DNA from: Burkholderiales bacterium | GTDB lineage: Bacteria; Pseudomonadota; Gammaproteobacteria; Burkholderiales; Eutrophovitaceae | Length of the DNA stretch: 64,000 bases | Direction of reading: 5' to 3' | Assembly (NCBI GenBank): GCA_035560005.1 | Contig: DATMAN010000038.1 | Span: 4,009-68,008, forward strand | Shown: piece by piece, positions 5,113 through 45,887 of the stretch | How positions within the stretch are numbered: the stretch's first letter is position 1 | Layout of the letters: each line of letters opens with the position of its first letter | Notes under the pieces: model-generated | The model's database searches: none | Told to the model about the DNA's origin: nothing | Seen by the model: only the letters and a program-made list of their open reading frames with translations | Translations under genes and position numbers: made by a program

Positions 5113-5126
5113 TTGATCCGTATCAA
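5113..5126. promoter_or_regulatory. FNR/Dnr-type box TTGATCCGTATCAA
   Basis: Perfect TTGAT-N4-ATCAA palindrome about 65 nt upstream of the hemerythrin start. Confidence 0.6.
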
Positions 5127-10690: not shown

Positions 10691-10693
10691 GGA

Positions 10694-10855
10694 CTCATGC
10701 GCTCACCGCGGAGGACGCGGGGAAATGCAGACCGGAGATTCACCACAAAGACCCAAAGAGAGCAAAGGTCACGAAGGAAACAACAAGAAGTCTTCGTGCT
10801 CCTTTGTGTCTTGGTGCCTTCGTGCCCTGCCTTCGGAGTGCCCTCAGTGTTCGGC
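10694..10855. repeat. palindromic repeat element, copy 1 (right outer arm degenerate)
   Basis: Starts 4 nt after the ctaB stop with GCGCTCACCGCGGAGGACGCGGGG. Inner CACAAAG/CACGAAG-type arms pair with TCTTCGTGCTCCTTTGTGTCTTGGTGCCTTCGTGCC. Confidence 0.6.
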
Positions 10856-11650: not shown

Positions 11651-11653
11651 TCT

Positions 11654-11800
11654 GAAAGCTCTCACCTCGGAGGACGCAGAGGAAAGGCAGGAGGCACAAA
11701 GAGACAAAGGAGACCGACACGAGGCTTGATTGCCGTTTCCTGCTTCGTGTTTCGCTTTTGAGGTGTGCTCCGCGTCCCCCGCGTCCTCTGCGGTGAGTGC
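11654..11800. repeat. palindromic repeat element, copy 2
   Basis: GAAAGCTCTCACCTCGGAGGACGCAGAGG ... CCGCGTCCTCTGCGGTGAGTGC. Begins 4 nt after the SCO1 stop. Confidence 0.7.
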
Positions 11801-11959: not shown

Positions 11960-13846
11960 ATGACCCGCGGCATGCAGAAGGCGGGGCAGTGGCTGTTCCT
12001 GCGCGTGGAAGCCGGCTTCAACGCCTTCTTCGGCCAGGCCCTCAATCCGCTCTATCACCTGGGCGCGATCGGCTTCTTCCTGTTCTGGATCGCGCTCGCG
12101 AGCGGCTTGTACCTGTACGCATTTTTCGACACGGGCGTGACGGAAGCCTACGACTCGGTGGAAAAACTCACGCGCCAGTGGTACCTGGGCGGACTGATGC
12201 GCAGCCTGCACCGCTACGCCTCCGACGGCATGGTGCTGGTGATGATGCTGCACATGCTCCGGCACTTCGTGTTCGGTCGCTACCGCGATTTCCGCTGGTT
12301 CTCGTGGGCCACCGGGGTCGTGCTGCTGTGGCTCACCTACGCCTCGGGCATCAACGGCTATATGCTGCCCTGGGACCGTCTCGGCCAGTTCGTGGCCACC
12401 GCCACCGGCGAATGGCTCGACTGGTTCCCCATCTTCGCCGGCGAGGCAGCGCGCAACTTCGCCTTCCGCGGCAGCGTCAACGATCGCCTGTTCTCCCTGC
12501 TTTCGTTCCTGCATATCGGCATACCGCTCGCTGTGCTGATCCTCGCCTGGGTGCATACCCAGCGCGTTCCGCGGGCGCGCATCAACCCGCCGCGCGCGAT
12601 CTGGCTGCCGCTCGGGCTCGCGCTGGTCGTGCTCTCGCTCCTCAAGCCCGCGATGAGCCAGGGGCCGGCCGATCTCGCCGTGGTGCCCGCGACGCTGGCG
12701 CTCGACTGGTACTACCTGCCGCTCTATCCGCTGATCTACGAGTGGTCGCCCGGCGAAGTCTGGGCGCTGGCCTTCGGCGCGACGCTGCTGTTGTTTCTGG
12801 TGCCCTGGCTTCCGGCGCGCCGCGCGCGCGGCCATGAGCACCACGTCACCTTCCGTCCCGCCAATCTCTCCGCGACCGTGCGCGCGGGCGAGACGCTGCT
12901 GGAAGCCGGCTTGCGGCAGGGCATCGCGCTGCCTTACGACTGCCGTAACGGCGGCTGCGGCGTGTGCAAGGTGGCGATCGTGCACGGCCAGGTGGATCAC
13001 GGTCCCTACCAGAAGTCGGTGCTTTCCGACGAGGAGCGGGCGCGTGGAATGGCGCTGTTGTGCTGCGCGATCCCTCTTTCCGATCTGGACATCGAAGTGG
13101 AAACGGCCGCCTTGCCGAAGCGGGTGTGGGAGGCGACCGTCGTGCGCATGCAACGCGCGGCGCCCGAGGTCATGCTGCTGTGGCTGAGGCTCGATGGGTC
13201 TGAGCGCATCGAGTATCGCGCCGGGCAGTACATCAACATCCTTCTTCAGGACGGTGCCCGGCGCGCGTACTCCTTCGCCACGGCGCCCGGCGCCTCGGAT
13301 CTCATCGAACTGCACGTGCGGCGCATGCCCGGCGGGCGCTTCACCGGCTGGGTATTCGAGAAGATGCGGGTGGGCGACCGGCTGCGCTTCGAAGGACCGT
13401 TCGGAGCGTTCGTCCTCAACGAGGAAAGCCCGCGGCCGGTGATCTTCGTGGCCGGCGCCACCGGTTTCGCACCGGTGAAGAGCATGCTGGAAGACGCCTT
13501 CCGCAAGAACGTGCGCCGGCCGATGGTGCTCTACTGGGGCGTGCGCAGCCGGGAAGATCTCTACATGGCCGAACTTCCGGAACGCTGGGCACGCGAGCAC
13601 CCGAACTTCAGCTTCGTGCCGGTGCTCTCCGAGCCGAAGCCCGAAGACCACTGGCGCGGCCGCACGGGCCTGGTGCACGAGGCGATCCTGCAGGACTTCC
13701 CGACGCTGAAGGGTTACGAAGTGTATGCCTGCGGCTCGATGCAGATGGTCGAGGCGGCGCATCCCGAGTTCATCGCGCGCGGGCTGTCCGAGGATGCCTG
13801 CTTTTCCGACGCCTTTACCCCCGCGCCGGAGCCGGCGGCAACGTGA
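11960..13846 (+). CDS. fusion protein: di-haem cytochrome b + plant-type 2Fe-2S ferredoxin + FAD/NAD(P)H ferredoxin-reductase module
   Basis: N-terminus has the bc1-type cytochrome b pattern: HRYASDGMVLVMMLH and HIGIPLAVLILAWVH (His pairs 14 apart) and GYMLPWD. Middle has CRNGGCGVCK...LCC. C-terminus has RAYSFA (RxYS FAD motif) and VFVAGATGFAPV (NAD(P) binding). Confidence 0.75.
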   Translation: MTRGMQKAGQWLFLRVEAGFNAFFGQALNPLYHLGAIGFFLFWIALASGLYLYAFFDTGVTEAYDSVEKLTRQWYLGGLMRSLHRYASDGMVLVMMLHMLRHFVFGRYRDFRWFSWATGVVLLWLTYASGINGYMLPWDRLGQFVATATGEWLDWFPIFAGEAARNFAFRGSVNDRLFSLLSFLHIGIPLAVLILAWVHTQRVPRARINPPRAIWLPLGLALVVLSLLKPAMSQGPADLAVVPATLALDWYYLPLYPLIYEWSPGEVWALAFGATLLLFLVPWLPARRARGHEHHVTFRPANLSATVRAGETLLEAGLRQGIALPYDCRNGGCGVCKVAIVHGQVDHGPYQKSVLSDEERARGMALLCCAIPLSDLDIEVETAALPKRVWEATVVRMQRAAPEVMLLWLRLDGSERIEYRAGQYINILLQDGARRAYSFATAPGASDLIELHVRRMPGGRFTGWVFEKMRVGDRLRFEGPFGAFVLNEESPRPVIFVAGATGFAPVKSMLEDAFRKNVRRPMVLYWGVRSREDLYMAELPERWAREHPNFSFVPVLSEPKPEDHWRGRTGLVHEAILQDFPTLKGYEVYACGSMQMVEAAHPEFIARGLSEDACFSDAFTPAPEPAAT

Positions 13847-14364: not shown

Positions 14365-15975
14365 ATGACCGCCGTTGCTCCCACCACCGCCGTTGCGATG
14401 CCGGCTGTGCGCCGCGCCGGCGAAACGCCGGGCCGTGCACAAATCCCCGCGCGCTCCCCGCAATGGTGGCGTGCGATGGAACGCGCAGTCGACGGCGTGA
14501 CCGGCGCGCGCCACAATCCGCTGCGAAACCTCGGCGCCCTCGGGTTCTACTTCTTCTGGATCGTTACCGCGAGCGGGGTCTATCTCTACGCTTTCTTCGA
14601 CACCAGCGTGACCGGTGCCTGGCAAAGCGTGGAGCGCATCACGCACGAGCAGTGGTACCTGGGCGGACTGATGCGCAGCCTGCACCGCTACGCCTCGGCC
14701 GGATTCTGCGTAGTCATGCTCGTGCATCTGTTGAAAGAGACGCTGTCGCGTCACTTCGGCGGCTTGCGTACATTCTCCTGGTTGACCGGCGTGCCGCTGA
14801 TCTGGCTCGCCTACGCCGCGGCGATCGGCGGCTACTGGCTGGTGTGGGACCGGCTCGCGCAGTTCTCCGCGACCGCGACCATGGAGTGGCTCGATGCGCT
14901 CGGCATCTTCGGGGAGCCGCTCGCGCGCAACTTCATCGCGCCCGACGCGGTCGACGACCGCCTCTTCTCGCTGCTGGTGTTCCTGCACATCGGCATTCCG
15001 CTGGCGCTGCTGCTCGGCATGTGGACGCACATCCAGCGCTTGAGCCACGCGGCAGTGTTGCCGTCGCGCCGGCTGGCGGCCTGCAGCTTCGCCGCGCTGC
15101 TGGCGGTGAGCGTGGTCCATCCGGCGCTCAGCCAGCCGCCCGCGGATCTCGCGCGCGTGCCTCGACAGCTCGGACTCGACTGGTTCTACATGTTCGTGCA
15201 TCCGCTCATGTATGAGACCTCCGCGGCCACCGTGTGGTGGCTGGCCGGCGCCGCGACCCTTCTGCTCGCGGCCCTGCCGCTCTTCGTGCGCGAGCCACGC
15301 GCACCGGCGGCGGTCGTCGATCCGCGCAACTGCAACGGTTGCGGGCGGTGCGTGGACGACTGCCCGTACGTGGCGATTACGCTCGTTCCCCATTCGATTA
15401 CCGGCGGACGGACATTGCAGGCGCTGGTCGATCCGGACCGCTGCGCGGCCTGTGGCATCTGTGTGGGCGCCTGTCCGTCTTCCACGCCGTTCCGTTCGGC
15501 GCGCGTGCTCGCCAGCGGAATCGAGCTGCCGCAGCTCACCGTGGATTCGCTGCGCGCGCGGCTGCGCGCCGCGCTCGCGCCCGCACCGGACCGCGCCCGC
15601 TACGTTGTCTTCGGTTGCGACTGCGCGGCCGAGGTCGCATCGCTGGCGAGCCGCGACGTCGCGGTCTTCGGCCTGCCGTGCGCCGGCATGCTGCCGCCGT
15701 CTTTCATTGCCTATGCCTTGCGGCTGGGCGCGCAGGGCGTGGTGGTGAGCACCTGCGGCGAAGGTGAGTGCGCCTACCGGCTCGGCGCCGAGTGGATCGA
15801 GCAGCGCATCAGCGCTCGGCGCGACCCGCGGCTGCGCCGCTCGGTGCCGCGCGATCGCGTGCGCCTGGTGCCGGCCGCGGGCGGCGAGTCCCGGCGCGTG
15901 GCCACGGAACTGGCGCTGCTGCGTGCGCATGCCGGCCAGCCGCAGCGCCTGGCGCGCCGAGGAGAAGCCGCATGA
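14365..15975 (+). CDS. fusion protein: di-haem cytochrome b + 2x[4Fe-4S] ferredoxin + MvhD/FlpD-like domain
   Basis: The cytochrome b domain is a paralogue of 11960..13846 (LHRYAS...MLVH, FLHIGIPLALLLGMWTH, GGYWLVWD). It is followed by CNGCGRCVDDCP and CAACGICVGACP, then VVFGCDC...LPCAGMLPPSFIAYALRLGAQGVVVSTCGEGECAYRLG resembling the MvhD delta-subunit domain. Start uncertain. Confidence 0.7.
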   Translation: MTAVAPTTAVAMPAVRRAGETPGRAQIPARSPQWWRAMERAVDGVTGARHNPLRNLGALGFYFFWIVTASGVYLYAFFDTSVTGAWQSVERITHEQWYLGGLMRSLHRYASAGFCVVMLVHLLKETLSRHFGGLRTFSWLTGVPLIWLAYAAAIGGYWLVWDRLAQFSATATMEWLDALGIFGEPLARNFIAPDAVDDRLFSLLVFLHIGIPLALLLGMWTHIQRLSHAAVLPSRRLAACSFAALLAVSVVHPALSQPPADLARVPRQLGLDWFYMFVHPLMYETSAATVWWLAGAATLLLAALPLFVREPRAPAAVVDPRNCNGCGRCVDDCPYVAITLVPHSITGGRTLQALVDPDRCAACGICVGACPSSTPFRSARVLASGIELPQLTVDSLRARLRAALAPAPDRARYVVFGCDCAAEVASLASRDVAVFGLPCAGMLPPSFIAYALRLGAQGVVVSTCGEGECAYRLGAEWIEQRISARRDPRLRRSVPRDRVRLVPAAGGESRRVATELALLRAHAGQPQRLARRGEAA

Positions 15976-17387: not shown

Positions 17388-17576
17388 CGAGCTCTCACCG
17401 CGGAGGGCGCGGGGGGACACGGAAGAGGGAACCCTGTAAAGCACACCACCAGGGCACAAAGACACAAAGGAGCACGAAGAAAGCACATGAAGTTCTTCTT
17501 TGTGTATCTTCGTGGCTTCGTGCCTTTGTGGTGAATTCCCGATCTGTCCTTCCTCCGCGTCCTCAGCGGTGAGCAG
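17388..17576. repeat. palindromic repeat element, copy 3 (most complete long hairpin)
   Basis: CGAGCTCTCACCGCGGAGGGCGCGGGG...CACAAAGACACAAAGGAGCACGAAGAAAGCAC / TTCTTTGTGTATCTTCGTGGCTTCGTGCCTTTGTGGTG...CCTCCGCGTCCTCAGCGGTGAGCAG. Starts 1 nt after the stop codon. Confidence 0.75.
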
Positions 17577-21486: not shown

Positions 21487-21673
21487 GAGGAAGTGCTAGA
21501 GGAAGAGCGAAGACATGCAGAAGTGCCGGAAGATCAGTATCAAGTGAACGGCGCTCGGAGAGGCAACCTGAACACGAAAAGCCGCGACATGAAGGGTTGC
21601 ACGCGTGATGTGTTGTCGGTGCCTTCTTGTTCTTCGTCGTGCCTTCGTGTCTTCGTGTTTCGCTCGTTTCTGC
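21487..21673. repeat. palindromic repeat element, copy 4 (left arm degenerate)
   Basis: Right arm GGTGCCTTCTTGTTCTTCGTCGTGCCTTCGTGTCTTCGTGTTTCGCTCG. Left arm GAAGAGCGAAGACATGCAGAAGTGCCGGAAGA only loosely complementary. Confidence 0.5.
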
Positions 21674-22209: not shown

Positions 22210-22223
22210 TTGACCTCCATCAA
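22210..22223. promoter_or_regulatory. near-consensus FNR-type box TTGACCTCCATCAA
   Basis: One mismatch. Upstream of nrdD. Confidence 0.4.
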
Positions 22224-22253
22224 GTCGTTGAGCGCCCGCGTCGGCCGCCAGAT

Positions 22254-22267
22254 TTGATGTAGATCAA
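22254..22267. promoter_or_regulatory. FNR-type box TTGATGTAGATCAA
   Basis: Perfect palindrome about 100 nt upstream of the nrdD start. Confidence 0.6.
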
Positions 22268-22367
22268 GAGAATCGAAGGAAGCGGCGGTCGACCGCGCCC
22301 CGGCGTTGTGTCCCCACAACGGGTTGCGCTAGGTTTTGCGCACGTCCACAAAAGGTAGGAGGTGTGC

Positions 22368-24404
22368 GTGAGCGCAGCGGGCGGCACCCTGGCCTTGCAT
22401 CCGGCGATGCCGACAAGAGTGGTCAAGCGGGACGGCTCGATCGTCGCGTTCGACGAAGGGCGTATCCGCGCCGCGATCCGTCGCGCGGGGCAGGCGACCG
22501 GGGAATTCGGGCCGGAGGAGGCCGCGCGCCTGAGCGCGCTGGTCGTGAAGGTGCTGGCGCATCGATTCGGCGGCCGCGAGGCCGGCATCGAAGCGATCCA
22601 GGACGTGGTCGAGCAGACGCTGATCGCGGCCGATCACTTCAAGACCGCGAGAGCCTACATCGTCTATCGCGAGCAGCATCGCAAGCTGCGCGAGGACCGC
22701 AGGACGCTGGTGGACGTGGCGTCCTCGGTCAACGAGTACCTCGAACGCCGCGACTGGCGCATCAACGCCAACGCCAACCAGGGCTACTCGCTGGGCGGCC
22801 TGATCCTGAACGTTTCCGGCAAGGTGGTGGCCAACTACTGGCTCAATCACGTCTATCCCCCCGAGGTCGGCGAGGCGCACCGCGAAGGCGACATCCACAT
22901 CCACGATCTGGACATGCTCGCCGGTTACTGTGCCGGATGGTCGCTGCGCACGCTGCTCGCCGAAGGGCTCAACGGCGTGCCGGGCAAGGTCGAGGCTTCG
23001 CCGCCCAGACACATGTCGAGTGCCGTCGGCCAGATCGTGAACTTTCTCGGCACGCTGCAGAACGAATGGGCCGGCGCGCAGGCGTTCAGTTCCTTCGATA
23101 CCTATATGGCGCCCTTCGTGCGCAAGGACGGCCTGCGCTACCACGAGGTCAAGCAGTGCATCCAGGAGCTGATCTACAACCTGAACGTGCCTTCGCGCTG
23201 GGGCACGCAGACCCCGTTCACCAATCTGACTTTCGACTGGACCTGCCCCGAGGATCTGCGCGAACAGGTACCGGTGATCGGCGGCCAGGAGATGCCGTTC
23301 GCCTACGGTGAGCTGCAGGCCGAGATGGATCTCATCAATCGCGCCTATATCGAAGTCATGATGACGGGCGACGTGAAAGGACGGGTCTTCACCTTTCCGA
23401 TCCCCACCTACAACATGACCCGCGACTTCCCGTGGGATCACCCCAACGCGGATCTTCTGTTCGAGATGACGGCCAAGTACGGGTTGCCGTACTTTCAGAA
23501 CTTCATCAACTCGGACCTGCGGCCCAACATGATCCGCTCGATGTGCTGCCGGCTGCAGCTCGACCTGAGGGAGCTGTTGAAGCGGGGCAACGGGCTATTC
23601 GGTTCCGCCGAGCAGACGGGCTCGCTGGGCGTGGTGACCATCAACTGCGCGCGGCTGGGCTACCTGCATGCCGGCGACGAAGCGGCGCTGCTCGCGCGGG
23701 CGGACGAGCTGCTCGATCTGGCCAGGACCAGCCTGGAAATCAAACGCAAGGTGATCCAGCGCCACATGGACGACGGGTTGTTCCCCTACACAAAGCGCTA
23801 TCTCGGCACGCTTCGCAATCACTTCTCGACCGTGGGCGTGAACGGCATCAACGAGATGATCCGGAACTTCACCCGGGACGGGTATGACATCACCGATCCG
23901 CGCGGCCACGCACTCGCCTGCCGCCTGCTCGATCACATCCGCACCCGGCTGCTCGAGTTTCAGGAACAAACCGGACACATGTACAACCTCGAGGCCACGC
24001 CGGCCGAGGGCACGACCTACCGCTTCGCCAAGGAAGACCGCAAGCGCTGGCCGGAAATCCTGCAGGCCGGCACGTCCGACGCGCCCTACTACACCAACTC
24101 CTCGCAACTGCCGGTGGGGTTCACCGACGATCCGTTCGAGGCGCTGGAGCGCCAGGAAGAACTGCAGCGCAAGTACACCGGGGGCACGGTGCTGCACCTG
24201 TACATGACCGAGAAGATCAGCTCGGCGCAGGCCTGCAAGCGGCTGGTGAAAAGGGTGCTGGAGCACTTCAGCCTTCCCTACATCACCGTGACACCGACGT
24301 TCTCCATCTGCCCGAAGCACGGCTACCTCGCCGGCGAACACGAGTTCTGCCCGAAGTGCGACGAGATCCTGCTGGCCCGCAAGCGCGCCTCGCTCGCTGC
24401 TTGA
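22368..24404 (+). CDS. nrdD: anaerobic ribonucleoside-triphosphate reductase, large N-terminal part (ends before the glycyl-radical domain)
   Basis: AGGAGG SD 5 nt before GTG 22368 (alternative ATG 22407). ATP-cone VVKRDGSIVAFDEGRIRAAI. Class III core motifs. Zn-ribbon ICPKHGYLAGEHEFCPKC, then a stop 13 codons later with no RVxGY motif. Confidence 0.8.
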   Translation: MSAAGGTLALHPAMPTRVVKRDGSIVAFDEGRIRAAIRRAGQATGEFGPEEAARLSALVVKVLAHRFGGREAGIEAIQDVVEQTLIAADHFKTARAYIVYREQHRKLREDRRTLVDVASSVNEYLERRDWRINANANQGYSLGGLILNVSGKVVANYWLNHVYPPEVGEAHREGDIHIHDLDMLAGYCAGWSLRTLLAEGLNGVPGKVEASPPRHMSSAVGQIVNFLGTLQNEWAGAQAFSSFDTYMAPFVRKDGLRYHEVKQCIQELIYNLNVPSRWGTQTPFTNLTFDWTCPEDLREQVPVIGGQEMPFAYGELQAEMDLINRAYIEVMMTGDVKGRVFTFPIPTYNMTRDFPWDHPNADLLFEMTAKYGLPYFQNFINSDLRPNMIRSMCCRLQLDLRELLKRGNGLFGSAEQTGSLGVVTINCARLGYLHAGDEAALLARADELLDLARTSLEIKRKVIQRHMDDGLFPYTKRYLGTLRNHFSTVGVNGINEMIRNFTRDGYDITDPRGHALACRLLDHIRTRLLEFQEQTGHMYNLEATPAEGTTYRFAKEDRKRWPEILQAGTSDAPYYTNSSQLPVGFTDDPFEALERQEELQRKYTGGTVLHLYMTEKISSAQACKRLVKRVLEHFSLPYITVTPTFSICPKHGYLAGEHEFCPKCDEILLARKRASLAA

Positions 24405-24410
24405 CAGGTA

Positions 24411-24617
24411 CGAAAGCGCTCATCGCGGAGGACGCAGAGGACGCAAAGGAAGAACGAAATCGAGAATGATTTCAGGGTTCAGCCGAACGTGATGATTGGT
24501 TCTGCCGGAATGCATCCGCTCGGGATCTGCCGCACCGCACGGCGCGACGCAGCCATCTCATATCTCTTTCGCGTTGCTTTACTCCGCGTCCTCTGCGACC
24601 TCCGCGGTGGAAGCTCG
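24411..24617. repeat. palindromic repeat element, copy 5
   Basis: CGAAAGCGCTCATCGCGGAGGACGCAGAGGACGCAAAGGAAGAACGAAATCGAG ... CTTTACTCCGCGTCCTCTGCGACCTCCGCGGTGGAAGC. Starts 7 nt after the nrdD-N stop. Confidence 0.75.
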
Positions 24618-24628
24618 AAGGAGAAGAC

Positions 24629-26497
24629 ATGAAGCTGCTGCTGATCAATCCGAGATACCCGGAAAGCTTCTGGAGCTTCCGCTGGGCGGTGAACGAGGTG
24701 CTGCCGGACAAGCGCGCGGTGAACCCGCCGCTCGGGCTCGCCACGCTCGCGGCGCTCACCCCGGCACACTGGGAAGTGAACATCGTCGATGAAAACGTGG
24801 AAACGGTTCCGCTCGCACCCGATGCCGATGTCGTGGGCGTGTGCGGAATGGGCGTGCAGTTCGCGCGCCAGTGCGAACTGCTGCGTTACTATCGCAAGGC
24901 GGGATACCGCACGGTCGCCGGCGGCAGCTTCGCTTCGTTGTGCCCCGAGCGTTATGCCGAAGTCGCGGACAGCGTCGTGGCGGGCGAGGCCGAGTACATC
25001 TGGAAGCAGTACTGCGCCGATCTGGAGCGCGGCAGGCCGGAACCGCTGTACCGCGAGACCGGGACGGTGTCGCTCGCCGATTCGCCGGTGCCGCGCTTCG
25101 ATCTGCTCAAGCTCGACCGCTACACGACCGCGACCCTGCAGTTCTCGCGCGGCTGCCCGTACCTGTGCGAGTTCTGCGACATCATCGTCATGTTCGGCCG
25201 CAAGCCGCGCCACAAGAGCGTCGAGCAGGTGGGGCGCGAACTGGACGCGTTGCGCGGCGCGGGCGCGCGCAACGCCTTCTTCGTCGACGACAACCTGATC
25301 GGGCATCGGGCCGTGGCCAGGGAACTGCTGCGCTTCCTGGCGGACTACCAGCGCCGGCATGGCTACCCGTTCAGTTTCGGCACCGAGGTATCGCTTAACC
25401 TCGCCCAGGACAAGGAGCTGCTCGATCTGTTCCGCCAAGCGCGTTTCAGCTGGGTATTCGTCGGCATCGAGTCTTCCGATCCCGAGACGCTGAAGCGGAC
25501 CCGCAAGACGCAGAACACGCACGAAGACGTGCTGACGTCGGTGCGCCGCATCTACGAGCATGGCATCGACGTACTGGCCGGCTTCATCGTCGGCTTCGAC
25601 ACCGACACGGTGGCGACCTTCGAGCATCAGACGCGCTTCATCGTCGAGTCCGGCGTCCAGGCGGCGATGGTCGGTTTGCTCACCGCGTTGCCCAAGACGC
25701 CGCTCTACGAGCGGCTGGAGAAAGCAGGGCGCCTGCGCGCGGCGGTCGCCGGTACCGACAACACCAAGCCGGCGACCAACGTCGTGCCCGAGCGCATGAG
25801 CTACGAGGAAATGGTCGGGGGCTACGAGGCCATGTACCGGCAGTTGACGAGCGATGCGGCCATCGCCGCTCGCATCCGCAACAAGTTCCGCTACATGCGC
25901 CTGCCGGTGTACGGCGGGGAATACTCGACAGCCGAACGGCTGCGCATCGTCTGGCGGCTGATGGTGAGGGGCGTGCTGCCCGGCGGGTGGCCGCGGACAT
26001 GGCACTTCCTGCGTTCGCTGCCGTTCGGCTCGCCGCGCTCGCTGCCGCTGGCGATCGTGGACTGGATCTGCGGCCTGTCCATGCGCGACTACGTGGACCG
26101 GCATTTCCCCGTTGCCCGCGAGGAGGCAGGCAAGGCATTGCGCCTGTTCGATGCGTTCCGGCGGCGGGTGGAGCGGCACGCGCAGGGCGTGCGGCTCGCC
26201 CTGTCGTTGAAAACGGTCGCGCCCGCGGTCTCGGTGAGCCTGCGCGGGGCGCTGCCTGGCGCCTTCTTCCGCGGTGCGGCACGCCATCTGGAGCGGCTGC
26301 TCGGAAGGACCGCCGCCACCGTAACGCTGCGGATCGAGGCGCTGCGCGAGCAGGAGCTGCCGCACCTCGACCGGCTGCTGGCACGGCTTGCCCGCTACGG
26401 TGACCGCGTCTCGGTCGTGGTGAGCGAGCGCATGCGTGGTGTCGTTCGCATCGATTCGTCGGTATTCCGGCTCGTTCTCTTGCCGGAATCTACGTAA
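24629..26497 (+). CDS. B12-binding-domain radical SAM protein with long C-terminal extension (DUF4070-like)
   Basis: AAGGAG SD. N-terminal B12-binding-like domain (MKLLLINPRYP...GLATLAALTP). Radical SAM CPYLCEFC. 622 aa. Confidence 0.75.
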   Translation: MKLLLINPRYPESFWSFRWAVNEVLPDKRAVNPPLGLATLAALTPAHWEVNIVDENVETVPLAPDADVVGVCGMGVQFARQCELLRYYRKAGYRTVAGGSFASLCPERYAEVADSVVAGEAEYIWKQYCADLERGRPEPLYRETGTVSLADSPVPRFDLLKLDRYTTATLQFSRGCPYLCEFCDIIVMFGRKPRHKSVEQVGRELDALRGAGARNAFFVDDNLIGHRAVARELLRFLADYQRRHGYPFSFGTEVSLNLAQDKELLDLFRQARFSWVFVGIESSDPETLKRTRKTQNTHEDVLTSVRRIYEHGIDVLAGFIVGFDTDTVATFEHQTRFIVESGVQAAMVGLLTALPKTPLYERLEKAGRLRAAVAGTDNTKPATNVVPERMSYEEMVGGYEAMYRQLTSDAAIAARIRNKFRYMRLPVYGGEYSTAERLRIVWRLMVRGVLPGGWPRTWHFLRSLPFGSPRSLPLAIVDWICGLSMRDYVDRHFPVAREEAGKALRLFDAFRRRVERHAQGVRLALSLKTVAPAVSVSLRGALPGAFFRGAARHLERLLGRTAATVTLRIEALREQELPHLDRLLARLARYGDRVSVVVSERMRGVVRIDSSVFRLVLLPEST

Positions 26498-26712
26498 CGA
26501 AATTGAACCACGGAGGACACGGAGGACACGGAGGAAGAACGAGAAAGGTGACAAGAGAGTGTCAGAAGGTGCGTTGACTGAATTGGCCCTCGATGCGAAG
26601 TGGGTTGGGGACAGATCGACCACGTGAGTTTGCACCCGCTGCTTGCATGGGCGTTACTCCAAGTTCCTGTTTTTCTCCGTGTCCTCCGTGTCCACCGTGG
26701 TTCATATTTTTC
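26498..26712. repeat. palindromic repeat element, copy 6 (GGACAC-type arms)
   Basis: Left GAAATTGAACCACGGAGGACACGGAGGACACGGAGGAAGAACGAG. Right CTGTTTTTCTCCGTGTCCTCCGTGTCCACCGTGGTTCATATTTTTC. About 45-bp near-perfect inverted arms. Starts 1 nt after the radical SAM stop. Confidence 0.8.
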
Positions 26713-26726
26713 TGAAAGGAGAAGCG

Positions 26727-26897
26727 ATGAGCGTACAGGTACAGAAGATCGAGCTGCGGGCAGAGGAGCGCCAGCGCTGCGAAGTGTGGACGCGCGTGAT
26801 GGGCTATCACCGGCCGGTGGCGTCGTTCAACATCGGCAAGAAGGCCGAGCACCGCGAGCGCAAGTTCTTCCGCGAGTCGCGCGCCGATGGAAGATAA
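26727..26897 (+). CDS. nrdD: detached NrdD C-terminal glycyl-radical domain (56 aa)
   Basis: AAAGGAGAAG SD then ATG. CEVWTRVMGYHRPVASFNIGKKAEHRERKFF matches the class III RNR glycyl-radical tail (RVxGY, Gly codon 26802..26804). Overlaps the nrdG start by 11 nt. Confidence 0.7.
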   Translation: MSVQVQKIELRAEERQRCEVWTRVMGYHRPVASFNIGKKAEHRERKFFRESRADGR

Positions 26898-27645
26898 GCG
26901 GGCCGAGCGCCGGGCCGGCGGCTATCCGCTCGCGCCGGCGCGGGCGGCTCCAGGCGTGCTGCGCGTCGGCGGCTTCGTCGGCCTGTCGGTGTCCGATTTT
27001 CCGGGCGAGCTGGCCGCGGTGGTGTTCTGCCAGGGATGTCCCTGGCGCTGCCGTTATTGTCACAACCCGCATCTGCAGCCGCGCCGAGGAGAGGGAGAAC
27101 TGAGCTGGGACGGCCTCCGGGAAAAGATGGCCGGGCGCCGCGGATTGCTCGATGCGGTGGTGTTCAGCGGCGGAGAGCCCACAGCGCAGCTCACGCTGGA
27201 GGACGCAGTCCGCGAAATGCGCGCGCTGGGCTTGAAGATCGGGCTGCACACCGCGGGTCCGTACCCCTCGCGGCTGGAGCGGCTGCTGCCTCACCTGGAC
27301 TGGGTGGGGCTTGACGTGAAGGCGCCGTTCGATCGCTACGATTCCCTCACCGGCGCCCGCAAATCTTCCCTGCGCGCACTCGACAGCCTGTGTGCGGTGA
27401 TCGACTCGGGGGTCGCCTGCGAAGTGCGGACCACGGTCCACCCCGACCTGATGGCGCCGGAGGAGCTGCTGCGGCTGGCGCGCTCGCTCGCCCGACTGGG
27501 CGTGAGGCGCTACGTGATCCAGGAATTTCGCGCGCAGGGTTGCGCCGACCGGCACTTGCTGCAACCGCGCCGCTCGCCCTGGCTGGCGAGCGTGCAAGCG
27601 CGGATCGCGGCGTTGTTCGACACTCTCGAGCTCAGGCCGGCCTGA
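26887..27645 (+). CDS. nrdG: anaerobic ribonucleotide reductase activating protein (radical SAM)
   Basis: VVFCQGCPWRCRYCHNP cluster, VVFSGGEPT, GLHTAG. Confidence 0.8.
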   Translation: MEDKRAERRAGGYPLAPARAAPGVLRVGGFVGLSVSDFPGELAAVVFCQGCPWRCRYCHNPHLQPRRGEGELSWDGLREKMAGRRGLLDAVVFSGGEPTAQLTLEDAVREMRALGLKIGLHTAGPYPSRLERLLPHLDWVGLDVKAPFDRYDSLTGARKSSLRALDSLCAVIDSGVACEVRTTVHPDLMAPEELLRLARSLARLGVRRYVIQEFRAQGCADRHLLQPRRSPWLASVQARIAALFDTLELRPA

Positions 27646-27721
27646 CGCGCGACGGGTGCGCCGGTAAGATTTCCGCAATGCCCTTGCGGCGCTGCCGACC
27701 TGCGCGACCGCCGCCCCTGCC

Positions 27722-28879
27722 GTGACTTCGAGCCGATTCGCACTGTTCAATCTGGGCTTCCGGCCGTTCTACCTGTTGGCGGCGCTGCTGGCCGTGCTCG
27801 GCGTTCCGGTCTGGGTGGCGCAGTGGTACGCAGTCATTCCGCAGCCGGGCCAGTTCGGCGGCATGGCCTGGCACGCACACGAGATGGTGTTCGGTTTCGC
27901 CGCTGCGGTGATCACCGGATTCCTGTTCACGGCGGCGCGCAACTGGACCGGGCTGCCCACGCCGACCGGCGCTGCGCTGGCCGCGCTGGCGGCCCTCTGG
28001 CTCGCCGGCCGGCTGGCGATGCTGACCGGACCCGGTGTGCTGGCGGCGCTGGTGGACTGCGCGTTTCTCCCGCTCGTCGCACTCAGCCTGTGGTTTCCGT
28101 TGAAGCGCAGCGGCAATCGCAATCTGTTCTTCGTCGGCCTGTTGCTGCTGTTCGCGGCTGCCAATCTCCTGTTCCATCTCGCACGCCTCGGGGTGCTGGC
28201 GCTGCCCCCGACGGTCCCCGCGCGCGGCGCGCTGTTCCTGGTCGTGTTGATCGTTTCGATCATGTCGGGCCGGGTGACGCCGAGCTTCACGAAGAATGCG
28301 ATGCCTTCGGCCAACGTTCGCCGGGTGGCAGCACTCGACGCCGCGGCCATCGGCGTGCTCGCGACGGCGCTCGCCGCGGAACTCGCGGGGACGCCGGCCT
28401 GGCTGCTCGCGCCCCTTGCCGGCGCGGCGGCGGCCTTGCATGCAGTGAGACTCGTGCTCTGGGACCCGCTCTCGACTTTGCGCAGCCCGATCCTGTGGAT
28501 CCTGCATTTGTCTTACGCGTGGATCCCGCTGGGCATGATTCTGCTCGCGGTTTCGGCGATCTATCCTGAGATCCCGGCTGGCCTGTTCCTGCATGCCCTG
28601 GGTACCGGAGCGGTGGGCGGATCGATCATCGGCATGATCACGCGCACCGCACGCGGACACACCGCGCGCCCCTTGCAGGCAGGAGGACGCGAGACGCTGG
28701 CGTACGTGCTGGTGCACGTGGCCGCGGCTCTTCGGGTGTTCGGGCCGCTCGCGCTGCCGGCGCAGTACGGCGCGGTCTTGATTGGCGCCGCCACGGCCTG
28801 GAGCCTCGCCTTCGTGCTGTATCTGATCGTCTACCTCCCGATCCTTTCGCTGCCTCGCCTCGACGGCAGACCCGGCTAG
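27722..28879 (+). CDS. nnrS: NnrS family haem/copper membrane protein
   Basis: GTG start. FRPFYLLAA, WHAHEMVFGFAAAVITGFLFTAARNWTG. Confidence 0.8.
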   Translation: MTSSRFALFNLGFRPFYLLAALLAVLGVPVWVAQWYAVIPQPGQFGGMAWHAHEMVFGFAAAVITGFLFTAARNWTGLPTPTGAALAALAALWLAGRLAMLTGPGVLAALVDCAFLPLVALSLWFPLKRSGNRNLFFVGLLLLFAAANLLFHLARLGVLALPPTVPARGALFLVVLIVSIMSGRVTPSFTKNAMPSANVRRVAALDAAAIGVLATALAAELAGTPAWLLAPLAGAAAALHAVRLVLWDPLSTLRSPILWILHLSYAWIPLGMILLAVSAIYPEIPAGLFLHALGTGAVGGSIIGMITRTARGHTARPLQAGGRETLAYVLVHVAAALRVFGPLALPAQYGAVLIGAATAWSLAFVLYLIVYLPILSLPRLDGRPG

Positions 28880-28882
28880 CCT

Positions 28883-29086
28883 AACGAAAACGCCCACCGC
28901 GGAGGACGCAAAGGACGCGGAGGAAGGCAAATCAGAAAATGACCACCAAGAGCGTCAGGGAAACGAGATGATCGGTTGTTTGTGTGCTTTCTTGGGGTTC
29001 CTGGCGGCTTTCGCGGTTCGTCCAAAGTCGTTTCTTTTTGTATTTCCTCTGCATCCTTTACGTCCTCCGCGGTGGGAGCAGATTTT
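28883..29086. repeat. palindromic repeat element, copy 7
   Basis: AACGAAAACGCCCACCGCGGAGGACGCAAAGGACGCGGAGGAAGGCAAATCAG ... GTATTTCCTCTGCATCCTTTACGTCCTCCGCGGTGGGAGCAGATTTT. Starts 4 nt after the nnrS stop. Confidence 0.8.
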
Positions 29087-29511: not shown

Positions 29512-29805
29512 ATGAATTGCGCCAATGCGTTCGGGGCTCACGAGCGCCCGGTCATCAACCCGCTGTTCCTGTTGCGCTGGGAACACACCCAGCAGGCCTA
29601 CGTGCTGCTCTACCCGGAGGGTGTCGTGAAGCTCAACGACACCGCCGGCGAAATCCTCAAGCGCTGCGACGGCCGGCACACCGTCGGCGAGCTGGTCGAA
29701 GAGATCACGCGCGAGTTTGCGGCCGATCCCGCCCGGATCGGCGAATCGGTGCAGAAATTCCTGGAGGTGTCCCATGCCAAAGGATGGATCCGTCGTCAGG
29801 CTTGA
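29512..29805 (+). CDS. pqqD: PqqA-binding chaperone PqqD
   Basis: ORF trimmed to MNCANAF after a GAAGGAAG SD. LLRWEHTQQAYVLLYPEGVVKLNDTAGEILKRCDG is a PqqD signature. Confidence 0.75.
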   Translation: MNCANAFGAHERPVINPLFLLRWEHTQQAYVLLYPEGVVKLNDTAGEILKRCDGRHTVGELVEEITREFAADPARIGESVQKFLEVSHAKGWIRRQA

Positions 29806-30916
29806 CGGGCAGGGCAAGCCGCTGTGGCTGGTGCTGGAGCTGACCTACCGCTGTCCGCTCGCCTGCCCTTGGTGCAGCAACCCGGTGGACTACCCCCGTT
29901 ACGGCGACGAGCTCACCACGGAAGAGTGGAAGCGTGTGCTGCGTGAAGGCCGAGAGCTGGGGGCGTTGCAACTCGGCTTTACCGGCGGCGAGCCGATGCT
30001 GCGCAAGGACCTGGAAGCGCTGGTCGAAGAGGCGCATGGCCTGGGCTACTACACCAACCTGATCACGTCCGGGATCGGGCTATCCGAGGCACGGCTCGCG
30101 GCCCTGAAGCGCGCGGGCCTGAATCAGATCCAGCTCTCCATCCAGTCGAGCCGGCGCGACCTCACCGACGAGCTGGTCGGTACGCGCGCCTTCGACCACA
30201 AGCTGACAGTGGCGCGGCTCATCAAGGCCTACGGGTTTCCGATGGTGCTCAACGTTCCGGTGTTCCGGCAGAACGTGGACCTCACCGCCGAGATCCTGCA
30301 AATGGCCGAGGACATCGGCGCGGACTATCTCGAGTTCGCCAACATCCAGTACTACAACTGGGCGATGGTGAACCGCGACGAGCTGCTGCCTTCGCTCGGG
30401 CAGCTCAAACGCGCCGAGGCCATCGTGCAGGAGGCGCGCGAGCGGCTCGACGGAAAGATGACCATCTACTTCGTCATCCCCGACTACTACGAAGAGCGCC
30501 CGAAGGCCTGCATGAACGGCTGGGGTTCGATTCACCTGACCATAGCGCCCGATGGCACGGCGCTGCCGTGCCAGGAAGCGCGCGTGATCACGGGGCTGGA
30601 ATTTCCGACCGTGCGCGAGAAGAGTCTCGCGTGGTTGTGGAACGAGTCGCCGGCCTTCAGCAAGTTCCGCGGAGAAGACTGGATGAAGGAACCCTGCCGC
30701 AGTTGCAGCGAGAAGGAGAAAGACTTCGGCGGCTGCCGCTGCCAGGCGCTGCTGCTCACGGGGGACGCGGCCAACACCGATCCCGCGTGCGCGAAGTCGC
30801 CGCACCATTATCTGATCGTCGAGGCGGTGGCGCGGGCCAGCGACCCGGGCCGTGCGCACCAGCCGCTGGTGATGCGGCGGGCGAGCCGCGAGGAACCGGA
30901 GATCGCGCCGGGATGA
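29774..30916 (+). CDS. pqqE: radical SAM PqqA peptide cyclase PqqE
   Basis: GGAGG SD. LELTYRCPLACPWCSNP radical SAM cluster plus a SPASM-type Cys-rich C-terminus (CRSC...CRCQ). Confidence 0.85.
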   Translation: MPKDGSVVRLDGQGKPLWLVLELTYRCPLACPWCSNPVDYPRYGDELTTEEWKRVLREGRELGALQLGFTGGEPMLRKDLEALVEEAHGLGYYTNLITSGIGLSEARLAALKRAGLNQIQLSIQSSRRDLTDELVGTRAFDHKLTVARLIKAYGFPMVLNVPVFRQNVDLTAEILQMAEDIGADYLEFANIQYYNWAMVNRDELLPSLGQLKRAEAIVQEARERLDGKMTIYFVIPDYYEERPKACMNGWGSIHLTIAPDGTALPCQEARVITGLEFPTVREKSLAWLWNESPAFSKFRGEDWMKEPCRSCSEKEKDFGGCRCQALLLTGDAANTDPACAKSPHHYLIVEAVARASDPGRAHQPLVMRRASREEPEIAPG

Positions 30917-31020
30917 GAAATCTGCTCGACAGCGCATTCGGCACGATCCTGGCCGGCATCGCGCTGACTGTGGCGCTTTGGCTTCTCGCCCGCTGGCTGG
31001 TGCACGCACCTTTCTGGTGA
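30913..31020 (+). CDS. 35-aa single-TM peptide translationally coupled to pqqE (hypothetical)
   Basis: ATGA overlap with the pqqE stop. MRNLLDSAFGTILAGIALTVALWLLARWLVHAPFW. Confidence 0.3.
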   Translation: MRNLLDSAFGTILAGIALTVALWLLARWLVHAPFW

Positions 31021-40036: not shown

Positions 40037-41260
40037 TCAGAACCCGATGCGCGCCGCGCGCGCCGTGAAGAAAATGCCGCTCGGTTTGTCGGCCGGGACT
40101 TCGGCAACGCGTTGCAGGCTTGCCGTGTCGTAGACCACGACGCGGTCGTCGTCGCGCGCCGAGATCCACACCGCCTCGCCGCGCGGGGTGAACTCCATGT
40201 GCAGCACCGCCCGCCCCGGTTCGAGCGTGCGCGCCACGCAGCCGCACTCGGTGTCGATGACTTGCACGCGCCCGTTATCGGGGAAGGCGAAGCTCACCCA
40301 CACCTGGCGCGCATCGGGCCGCGCCACCACGAACACGGGCTGGCCGGCCACGGCGATGCGCCCGGTCTCCTGCCAGCTTTCGGTGTCGACAACGAGGACT
40401 TCGTGGCGCCCGATCGCCGGCACGAAGGCACGGCAGCCGGCGACTGCCCAACCGCGCAGATGCGGCATCTTGTAGACCGGGAGTTTCTCTTCGCCCTGGC
40501 GATAGCCCTGCAGGATCCGCCGCACGCCGCGCTCGGGATGCCACAAATCCAGCAGCGCCAGACCGTCTTCGCCGTACAGGCCCGCGACGTACCAGCGGCC
40601 GTCGGGCGTCACCAGTCCGTCGTAGGGCTGCAGGCCGGCCGCGAACTTCTGCACGCCGGGCCGGCGCGGATTCGAGGCGTCCACCAGCCAGATCTCCCCG
40701 GCGTCGAACAGGCTGAAGACAAACCGGCCGCCGGGCGCATCGGCCAGTCCGACCACCTTCGAGCGCTGCTGCGCATCACCGAACTCGGCGGGAATGTCGG
40801 CCAGCAGCTCCAGCGTGTCCGCGGAGAACAGCTTCACGCCTCCGGGCGCGTAGTTCTGCGCGGCGACCACGCGGCCGTCCTGTGAGATGGCCCCGCCGAT
40901 GCTGTTGCCGGCCTGCAGGATGCGTGCGTCGATGCGCGCGCCGAGCAGATCGACTTTGGTGAGCCCGCCGTCGCGCCCGAACACGAAGGCGTAGCGCCCG
41001 TCGCGCGAATACACCGCCGAGGCGTGCGACAGATCCCCCAGACCCTCGACGCGTGCGATGGCGGTGCGCGCGCTGGTATCGAGCACCCGGACGCTGCCCG
41101 CGGCTCGCTCGATCACGATCCCCAGATCGCCCGTGCCTCGCAACTGCGCCTGCGCGGCGGGCGCAACCAGCGAAGCGGCGAGCGCAAACCCCGAGACGGA
41201 AAGGCGAAGCACGAAGGCACGAAGGCACGAAGGCAGTTCGGGTGACAAGAAAGCCCTCAT
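40037..41260 (-). CDS. nirF: haem d1 biosynthesis protein NirF (cd1-like propeller)
   Basis: LRGTGDLGIVIERAAGSVRVLD...GLGDLSHASAVYSRDGRYAFVFGRDGGLTKVDLL closely resembles NirF. Both the ATG at 41260 and the alternative GTG at 41212 lie inside repeat copy 10. Confidence 0.75.
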   Translation of the reverse strand: MRAFLSPELPSCLRAFVLRLSVSGFALAASLVAPAAQAQLRGTGDLGIVIERAAGSVRVLDTSARTAIARVEGLGDLSHASAVYSRDGRYAFVFGRDGGLTKVDLLGARIDARILQAGNSIGGAISQDGRVVAAQNYAPGGVKLFSADTLELLADIPAEFGDAQQRSKVVGLADAPGGRFVFSLFDAGEIWLVDASNPRRPGVQKFAAGLQPYDGLVTPDGRWYVAGLYGEDGLALLDLWHPERGVRRILQGYRQGEEKLPVYKMPHLRGWAVAGCRAFVPAIGRHEVLVVDTESWQETGRIAVAGQPVFVVARPDARQVWVSFAFPDNGRVQVIDTECGCVARTLEPGRAVLHMEFTPRGEAVWISARDDDRVVVYDTASLQRVAEVPADKPSGIFFTARAARIGF

Positions 41261-41402
41261 CCGTCTGCACCGCTGGCCAAACGCCGCTGCCGCAGCACAA
41301 CTGCGGAAAAGTCTCTCGGTAATCTTCACGCCTATTCCGGCTCCTGGTTTTGCACTTCTTCGTGCCTTCGTGTTCTCGTGCTTCGCTCTTGTGTTTCTTC
41401 TG
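41193..41402. repeat. palindromic repeat element, copy 10
   Basis: Left arm contains 3x CACGAAGG (41210..41233). Right arm CTTCTTCGTGCCTTCGTGTTCTCGTGCTTCGCTCTTGTGTTTCTTCTG. The arms overlap the nirF start and the nirC 3' end. Confidence 0.8.
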
Positions 41403-45194: not shown

Positions 45195-45887
45195 ATGCTG
45201 ACCGTTCCGATCAAGACTCAGGCTTTCCTGAACAATCTTCCGCTGTTCCGGGAGCTGGGCGCGGAAGAGATCGATCGCATCGCGTCTGGGACGCGCGAAG
45301 TGCGCGTCAAGCGCGGCGACGTGCTGTTTCAGAAGGGTGACCCCTGCCGCGGTTTCCACATCGTTGTCTACGGCCAGGTCAAACTTCTCTTCGTCACGCC
45401 GCAGGGCGACGAGAAGGTGATCGAGATCATGGGTCCCGGGCAGAGCTTCGGTGAGGCGGTGATGTTCCTCGAAAAGCCCTACGTCGTGACCGGTCAGGCG
45501 CTGACCGACTCGATGCTGCTGCACGTGGCCAAGGAAGTGGTGTTCGAGGAGATCGAGCGCGACCCGAAGTTCGCGCGGCGGGTGATCGCGGGGCTGAGCC
45601 GCCGGCTGCATCAGCTGGTGAGCGACGTAGAGGCCTACTCCCTGCGCTCGGCCGCGCAGCGCGTGATCGGCTATCTGCTGCGCCCCGATCACGAGCACGG
45701 CGATTCTGAACGATCGCTGGCGGTGACATTGCCTGCGAGCAAGTCGGTCATCGCTTCGCGGCTCAACATCACCCCAGAACATTTCTCGCGCGTACTGCAC
45801 GAGCTGACCGAGGCGCGCCTCATAGTGGTGGATGGCCGCACGGTGCGCATTCTCGACGTCGACCGGCTGCGCGCCTACGACGGCTAG
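45195..45887 (+). CDS. dnr: Crp/Fnr-family regulator without N-terminal Cys cluster (Dnr/NnrR type)
   Basis: cNMP-like domain LPLFRELGAEEIDRIA and a C-terminal HTH ITPEHFSRVLHEL carrying the E--SR recognition motif. No Fe-S Cys motif. Confidence 0.7.
   Translation: MLTVPIKTQAFLNNLPLFRELGAEEIDRIASGTREVRVKRGDVLFQKGDPCRGFHIVVYGQVKLLFVTPQGDEKVIEIMGPGQSFGEAVMFLEKPYVVTGQALTDSMLLHVAKEVVFEEIERDPKFARRVIAGLSRRLHQLVSDVEAYSLRSAAQRVIGYLLRPDHEHGDSERSLAVTLPASKSVIASRLNITPEHFSRVLHELTEARLIVVDGRTVRILDVDRLRAYDG

Follow-up and report, generated by a model that had tools for sequence, protein, structure and literature searches.

Is an nrdD gene that stops before its glycyl-radical motif a broken gene, an assembly error, or a complete gene of another design? 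We asked this of a class III ribonucleotide reductase (RNR) locus in a 64,000-nucleotide stretch of DNA from a Burkholderiales bacterium (GenBank assembly GCA_035560005.1, contig DATMAN010000038.1, positions 4,009 to 68,008; the whole stretch is called the window below). In this locus, the large nrdD open reading frame (ORF), here termed the body, is followed by a gene for a B12-binding radical S-adenosylmethionine (SAM) protein, then by a 56-aa ORF that carries the missing motif, here termed the tail, and then by the activase gene nrdG. The original prediction, made from the letters of this DNA, proposed that a cassette bounded by repeats had inserted into nrdD, leaving an enzyme that was either inactivated or working in two pieces, or else that the arrangement was an assembly chimera. 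We consider it likely that the locus encodes an obligate two-chain class III RNR of the NF006126 type, whose subunits are natively encoded by two genes.

Body, tail, and activase genes of the window

The body (22362..24404, on the forward strand, as are all genes of the locus) comprises an ATP-cone (Pfam, E = 1.1e-22), the class III RNR barrel, and a zinc ribbon, CPKH-x9-CPKC, which aligned with the zinc-ribbon regions of T. maritima and Actinomyces oris and is a predicted metal site. There are three candidate start codons, GTG at 22362, GTG at 22368, and ATG at 22407, and translation may in fact begin at either of the last two. The protein matched positions 2-528 of the 562 in Pfam NRDD (E = 1.8e-175) and positions 3-649 of the 684 in NCBIfam NF006126 (1141.8 bits compared to a cut-off of 548). 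Its C-terminus reads ...FCPKCDEILLARKRASLAA / ...SICPKHGYLAGEHEFCPKCDEILLARKRASLAA up to the stop codon. The body end at 24404 was predicted correctly, but the stop does not fall 13 codons past CPKC as had been counted; the extension after the zinc ribbon has 14 residues, DEILLARKRASLAA. As predicted, a motif search found no R[VI]xGY in the body sequence.

The tail (26727..26897; ≈6.8 kDa) contains RVMGY, with the putative radical residue at Gly26, and has its own ATG and Shine-Dalgarno (SD) sequence, AAAGGAGAAG, at 26715-26724. It matched positions 531-562 of 562 in Pfam NRDD, which bears out the proposed homology to the NrdD C-terminus, and positions 649-682 of 684 in NF006126. Because the body covers positions 3-649 of the latter profile and the tail 649-682, the two pieces abut on this profile and nothing has been lost between them. 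The tail did not match the pyruvate formate-lyase (PFL) C-terminus (Pfam Gly_radical); NRDD alone was matched. The tail stop codon (26895-26897) lies 11 nt inside nrdG, which begins with ATG at 26887 (26887..27645; TIGR02495 NrdG2, 201.8 bits compared to a cut-off of 131), in agreement with the predicted overlap. Thus, RVxGY and the barrel, which the family definition places in one polypeptide, are found here on two, and since the motif sits on a separate ORF, the locus is a two-chain variant of the class III RNR NrdD family. No other NrdD-type glycyl-radical tail was found in the window, where the single further R[VI]xGY in six frames (frame position 45660) lacked similarity to NrdD tails.

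The 2322-nt gap between body and tail contains what the original prediction had described: a palindromic element (repeat copy 5), a 622-aa B12-binding radical SAM gene with its own SD sequence, and a second palindromic element (repeat copy 6). Signs of an intron or an intein that interrupts nrdD were not found: at E <= 1, the interval 21-30 kb matched no Rfam family, and in the body and tail Pfam found only the ATP-cone and NRDD, and no intein domain.

Two FNR/NNR-type boxes, at 22210-22223 (TTGACCTCCATCAA, one mismatch) and 22254-22267 (TTGATGTAGATCAA, perfect), were found by pattern search on the forward strand ≈100-150 nt 5' of the body, and the region 22210..22267 is likely the anaerobic promoter region of the nrd operon. 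The same pattern search found no FNR-type box directly 5' of the radical SAM gene or the tail. A scan of 21.9-28 kb for sigma-70 promoters returned zero sites, and terminator-like sites across this interval occurred at chance level.

The same split in relatives

The original prediction called for a survey of relatives for an uninterrupted nrdD. We scanned one genome per species, which gave at least 598 matches, and took the best 80, of which 77 loci include the body. None of the 77 contained a fused nrdD. Instead, a stop codon ended the body at the same place in every one (query residues 663-680), the gene order was body-tail-nrdG throughout, and the tail was a separate ORF of ≈55-65 aa, often in another frame. 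Almost all of these loci had no gene between body and tail.

This result was supported by searches with the tail. A protein search gave 5485 matches, the best 120 of which were all 54-87 aa long. When HMMER was run exhaustively against 1.84 billion representatives of 50%-identity clusters, it gave 1532 matches at E <= 1e-3, and 148 of the best 150 representatives were stand-alone proteins of 53-113 aa. The two exceptions were a chance match to a repeat protein and an odd fusion (P0376, 526 aa), in which an NrdD glycyl-radical tail, EDERQRCEVWTRVMGYHRP..., is embedded between N- and C-terminal regions. By eye, the flanking sequence of P0376 was judged NUDIX-like and nucleoside 2-deoxyribosyltransferase-like; the protein may represent either a genuine fusion or an error of gene calling.

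Carriers of the split include Betaproteobacteria (Thiobacillus, Thauera, Duganella, Sulfuricella, Sutterella, and many Burkholderiales), Gammaproteobacteria (Chromatiaceae, Lysobacteraceae, and one Pseudomonas metagenome-assembled genome [MAG]), Deltaproteobacteria (Geobacteraceae), and Verrucomicrobiota, and alphaproteobacterial split loci were found on replicons of a plasmid collection (Paracoccus, Bradyrhizobium, and Cereibacter). Body identity across classes was 74-85%, and the ATP-cone, barrel, and zinc ribbon were kept. This distribution indicates that the split is an old, conserved design common to many Proteobacteria.

Annotation of these loci is uneven. For plasmid pHG1 of C. necator H16, RefSeq lists a "ribonucleoside triphosphate reductase" of 676 aa, the activase, and a gene of 66 aa to which it gives the name nrdD. 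The label of the small ORF is "hypothetical protein" in both R. solanacearum and Paracoccus ferrooxidans. The genome paper on C. metallidurans assigns NrdDG to Rmet_5137 and Rmet_5139, and states that denitrifying growth of H16 needs NrdDG (PMC2864759). The numbering of the two Rmet genes leaves one gene between them. In the pHG1 locus of H16 (L084 1771-4847), the large nrdD ORF computes to 76.2 kDa. The abstract of Siedow et al. 1999 reportedly gives this same value as the NrdD mass; if so, the 66-aa radical subunit was seemingly overlooked in the original characterisation. In full-text searches and RNR reviews, we found no paper on a bacterial NrdD whose radical domain is a protein of its own, although specialists may know of it. 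The split architecture thus appears to be undescribed in the literature that was searched, even though RefSeq already labels the small ORF nrdD.

Position of the break

We aligned the junction to T. maritima NrdD through a fused ortholog, as a search of the PDB with the tail as sole query returned no match. The fused A. oris protein reads ...CDKCAELHPEAEPVECEVWTRVMGYF... across the junction. Other fused forms came from Streptomyces, Propionibacteriaceae, Microbacterium, Riflebacteria, a Rickettsiales MAG, and Halorhodospira; fused forms were found mainly in Actinobacteria. The search for them, with a junction-spanning query, yielded mostly C-terminal fragments, which sufficed for a comparison of linkers but not for a phylogeny. 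Between CxxC and (C)EVWTRVMGY, the linkers of fused forms range from 2 to ≈22 residues, exactly at the position of the break, and the alignment with T. maritima NrdD runs through this junction as well. The break therefore falls within a stretch that varies naturally, the linker from the zinc ribbon to the Gly loop.

Split proteins share termini of their own. The body extension, D-E-E-L-L-A-R-K-R-x-x-L-A-A, has a median length of 14 residues after CxxC, with its D in 85/85 sequences and the K at position 8 in 76/85, and the tail begins with the leader L-R-D-E-E-R-Q-R-C. Both motifs were absent from the fused forms examined. These shared termini suggest a single origin of the split, and possibly form a docking interface between the chains. 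One fused fragment, from Halorhodospira abdelmalekii (P0390), has a long linker, CDDQLRAAGHSEPLPEEKRTRCEVW, in which forms of the two split-type motifs persist; this protein may have arisen when split genes fused again, or it may be an intermediate. We also considered Cys18 of the tail as a fourth zinc ligand that bridges the chains. This idea was rejected as a general feature, as the residue is Thr or Ala in some fused orthologs and is missing in T. maritima.

Conservation of the tail and its proximity to nrdG

The tail is invariant at 28/56 positions among 28 diverse sequences. In its core, 87 distinct nucleotide sequences gave a proportion of synonymous differences (pS) of ≈0.67, which is near saturation, and a proportion of nonsynonymous differences (pN) of ≈0.15 (pN/pS ≈0.22), values that point to purifying selection on the tail ORF. 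In the loci examined, the body and nrdG were always the company in which the tail occurred, and the tail and nrdG were tightly juxtaposed. Among candidate starts of nrdG, the one nearest to the tail stop was at a median distance of -4 nt and fell within -60..+30 nt in 50/74 loci, figures that are biased toward small distances by the choice of the nearest start. Annotated tail-nrdG overlaps in RefSeq/GenBank agree (H16, R. solanacearum, and Paracoccus), and downstream of the tail stop a median of 20 nt passes before the first residue that is conserved in NrdG.

Integrity of the locus

An independent assembly, contig L002 from sequencing run SRR6202010, matched 23535-28118 of the window without gaps and across both repeats, at 99.8% identity (8 mismatches). 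Because of these 8 mismatches, L002 represents a different strain or read set. Two further short-read assemblies (L001 and L003) both start at 26507, inside repeat copy 6, which shows that this is a site where short-read assemblies tend to break. Relatives at ≈75-85% nucleotide identity are collinear with the locus. We conclude that the locus is not chimeric, and that it is an intact locus, ordinary for its clade, rather than a disrupted gene.

The B12-radical SAM gene in the spacer

The gene in the spacer (24629..26497, SD sequence AAGGAG at 24618-24623) encodes a 622-aa protein with an N-terminal B12-binding domain, the CxxxCxxC core (CPYLCEFC), and a DUF4070 domain, and thus a class B radical SAM protein. 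It fell below every NCBIfam equivalog cut-off, with weak matches to C-methyltransferases of proteins or cofactors. Its family is large and well conserved, giving 7942 matches at E <= 1e-10, with Burkholderiales orthologs at 64-86% identity, and the protein belongs to an anaerobiosis-associated betaproteobacterial family.

The order body-radical SAM-tail-nrdG(-nnrS) recurs in relatives at 69-86% protein identity (L002, L029, L088-L090, and L098). Elsewhere, the radical SAM gene lies between tail and nrdG (L030 and L033; L030 is tightly packed, and the gene overlaps nrdG), 3' of nrdG (L118), or 5' of the body (L125). Altogether, the orthologs occupy four positions around nrd operons, in ≈5 of the 42 metagenome loci with some flanking sequence. 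Most orthologs (64-76% identity) lie away from nrd genes, beside Crp/Fnr genes, a nitric oxide reductase-like cluster with nnrS, or unrelated genes. Others lie directly after ubiU-ubiV-(LplA-like)-ubiT: orthologs in L093 (2016-7899), L094, L112, L127, and L140 follow ubiU-ubiV-(LplA-like)-SCP2/ubiT or lie near Crp/Fnr, and the one in L093 overlaps the SCP2 gene by 4 nt. These ubiUVT and Fnr neighbourhoods hint at a role of the protein among oxygen-independent replacement pathways.

The GC content of the radical SAM gene matches that of its neighbours. The gene is not the cause of the split, because nearly all split relatives lack the insertion; the comparisons indicate that it entered a pre-existing body-tail spacer in one Burkholderiales clade. 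The simplest explanation is that the gene is regulated by anaerobiosis and moves from one FNR-controlled neighbourhood to another, and that the body-tail spacer was a harmless landing site for it. Its presence in the spacer is a gene-order variant at the level of the clade, and is the feature specific to the window.

Palindromic repeats

Repeat copy 5 (24410-24614) has arms made of tandem 8-9-mers, GGAGGACGC..., and is most closely related to the element at 28884-29079. Repeat copy 6 (26504-26704) has arms of CACGGAGGA repeats that are 94% complementary over 33 nt. Each is a palindrome complete in itself, and both would form long hairpins if transcribed (RNA folding z of -3.5 for copy 5 and -7.6 for copy 6), and a U-rich stretch follows the second hairpin. 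Arm similarity is 68% between copies 5 and 6, compared to 81-89% between copy 5 and the element at 28884-29079, and the interiors are not homologous. Elements of the same style occupy about ten other intergenic spacers of the window, and the equivalent spacers of L088 and L089 contain such elements with unalignable sequence. The flanking palindromes are thus ordinary copies of an intergenic repeat family and not a matched pair of cassette ends.

In the window, this loose family comprises palindromes of 150-210 bp at ≈10693-10833, 11652-11800, 17438-17553, ≈21500-21665, 24410-24614, 26504-26704, 28884-29079, ≈31196, ≈36788, 41193-41397, and ≈56980. Their arms consist of tandem purine-rich 8-9-mers (GGAGGACGC, CACGGAGGA, and CGAAGGCA) and the complements of these, and their interiors are not homologous. 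The arm units look like repeated SD and anti-SD sequences.

Surroundings of the locus

The next gene downstream of nrdG is an nnrS-like gene (27722..28879), which has the same position in the closest relatives. Downstream of nnrS is a set (29512-31020) resembling those for ribosomally synthesised and post-translationally modified peptides (RiPPs), with a PqqD-like gene (29512-29805), a radical SAM/SPASM gene (29774-30916), and an overlapping 35-aa ORF (30913-31020). L088-L090 have kept this set, and the genes after it are Urate_ox_N-like, aminotransferase class V, and DHO_dh-like. The whole window contains 34 FNR/NNR-type boxes (TTGAT-N4-ATCAA, <=2 mismatches) compared to 7.3 expected; no shuffle gave as many as 34. 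Perfect boxes lie at 5113, 7222, 11827, 22254, and 44089. The window resembles a gene island for anaerobic life or denitrification. Direct repeats at 12176-12565 and 14650-15039, 2474 nt apart, match over 53 nt at 96% and over 117 nt at 73%, suggesting tandem paralogous genes.

Comparison with known systems

Single-chain NrdD proteins (E. coli, phage T4, T. maritima, and A. oris) share with the locus the domain order of ATP-cone, barrel, zinc ribbon, and Gly loop, the activase partner, and FNR-type control, and those of A. oris and T. maritima align over the junction. In contrast, the chain in the window ends past the zinc ribbon, and a second gene, with its own SD sequence and start, encodes the Gly loop. 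Another parallel is GrcA/YfiD, a small protein homologous to a C-terminal radical domain that acts in trans on a body without this domain (PMC12288474). Like proteins of the GrcA type, the tail is a stand-alone small protein made of the glycyl-radical domain. However, GrcA is a spare part for full-length PFL with a radical domain of its own, belongs to the PFL family and not to NRDD, and is encoded elsewhere, whereas the body in the window never encodes the domain, such that the small protein would be an obligate subunit, encoded beside the activase gene.

Two other systems resemble the locus in layout. Class II NrdJa/NrdJb of Pseudomonas aeruginosa is encoded by two consecutive ORFs with a C-terminal module on the second (PMC4009431, PMC9669993), but it is documented in the literature, belongs to another RNR class, and has an IscU-like and zinc finger module rather than a radical loop. 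In Aeromonas phage Aeh1 nrdA with its mobE insertion, and in phage nrdD genes with introns or inteins, an RNR gene in two coding pieces is functional, and in Aeh1 another gene lies between the pieces (PMC3653736). In these phage cases, however, the mobile element caused the break or is spliced out, whereas the break in the window predates the radical SAM gene.

Alternative explanations

The position of the radical SAM gene between the nrdD pieces, with a palindromic repeat in each spacer, is what a mobile cassette bounded by repeats would leave after cutting an intact nrdD into a pseudogene or an accidental two-piece enzyme. We consider this origin highly improbable, as the same break and the split-specific termini occur in 77/77 relatives, nearly all of which lack the inserted gene. 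Moreover, copies 5 and 6 differ in subtype, the best partner of copy 5 is the 28.9-kb element, and such repeats occupy about ten other spacers of the window. The gap contains the radical SAM ORF alone, of unremarkable GC content and with no transposase or integrase ORF, and the arrangement is kept over 15-25% nucleotide divergence. A chimera formed at the repeats has in its favour that the short-read assemblies L001 and L003 break exactly at repeat copy 6 (26507), but we give it next to no credence: L002 spans the region from the body C-terminus through both repeats, the radical SAM gene, and the tail to nrdG without gaps, and the same gene order is found in L088, L089, L090, L029, and L098. 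Neither origin put forward in the original prediction was supported, nor was inactivation of the enzyme. Its suggestion of a radical domain acting in trans, as GrcA does for PFL, was supported as the most likely mode of action, given the purifying selection on the tail and its constant linkage to the body and nrdG.

It is also very unlikely that the small ORF is a GrcA-like spare part for an oxygen-damaged, full-length NrdD encoded elsewhere, and that the local body has another role or none. Autonomous cofactors of this type exist for PFL (PMC12288474), and the part of this genome examined is the 64-kb window, but body, tail, and nrdG occur together in every locus examined, and the body is strongly conserved across classes with all of its domains. 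A second NrdD-type tail was not found in the window, and the plasmid-borne split locus of C. necator alone accounts for anaerobic growth (PMC2864759). A functional tie between the radical SAM protein and the reductase, for example by methylating or otherwise modifying the small subunit or the body, seems unlikely to us, if less far-fetched. B12-radical SAM enzymes do modify methyl-coenzyme M reductase, which is a model for such a tie. The nrd-linked orthologs at four positions, the overlap with nrdG in L030, the RiPP-like layout of a small peptide gene next to a radical SAM gene, and the weak matches to C-methyltransferases all fit this idea. On the other hand, most orthologs lie far from nrd genes, nearly all split operons lack the radical SAM gene, and shared anaerobic regulation is a simpler account.

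A probable two-chain class III ribonucleotide reductase

The anatomy of the locus, its conservation and synteny, its contiguity, and the split without insertion in nearly all relatives were observed directly, and it is from these that we favour the obligate two-chain enzyme. In this enzyme, the large subunit would supply allostery through the ATP-cone, the catalytic barrel, and the zinc ribbon, and the small subunit would supply the Gly loop, docking non-covalently such that the loop is inserted into the barrel. NrdG would install the radical on Gly26, and the complex would then act like a one-chain NrdD. The radical SAM gene is probably read from the same FNR-dependent operon as the nrdD pieces. 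Indirect support for reductase function comes from the equally split pHG1 locus of C. necator, which is reported to be required for anaerobic growth (PMC2864759).

Several points weigh against this interpretation. Physical assembly of the two chains, radical formation on the small one, reduction of nucleoside triphosphates, and co-transcription are steps that we infer from the sequences. The 2.3 kb and two strong hairpins between the genes could, in this clade, leave the two chains unequally expressed. The survey for a second nrdD covered the 64-kb window, and a fused copy elsewhere in the genome would escape it. Finally, AlphaFold2 modelling of the tail alone (28 homologs) gave a mean predicted confidence (pLDDT) of 49 and no secondary structure; this prediction is compatible with a peptide that would fold only on the body, and proves nothing.

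For annotation, the two-chain enzyme has a practical consequence. The small ORF is often a "hypothetical protein" or is not called (R. solanacearum, Paracoccus, and C. metallidurans), and the tail-less body is then mistaken for a complete or a broken NrdD.

For the mechanism of these enzymes, how the activase gains access to a buried glycine loop is a long-standing question, as the loop of a one-chain enzyme must swing out of the barrel. A separate 6-7-kDa loop protein, encoded beside the activase gene, would give an experimental handle on activation, docking, and repair of oxygen damage. We tentatively suggest, as a possibility that we hold with much less confidence than the two-chain enzyme itself, that the small subunit is an exchangeable radical cartridge: a free 6.8-kDa peptide that would be activated off the enzyme by co-translated NrdG and then plugged into the barrel. 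Modification of this cartridge by the radical SAM enzyme is a possible further layer. If the cartridge interpretation is true, then after cleavage by oxygen at the glycine the cartridge alone would be replaced and the 76-kDa body kept, and this enzyme, which many facultatively anaerobic Proteobacteria share, would be the first natural glycyl-radical enzyme whose radical domain is obligate and works in trans.

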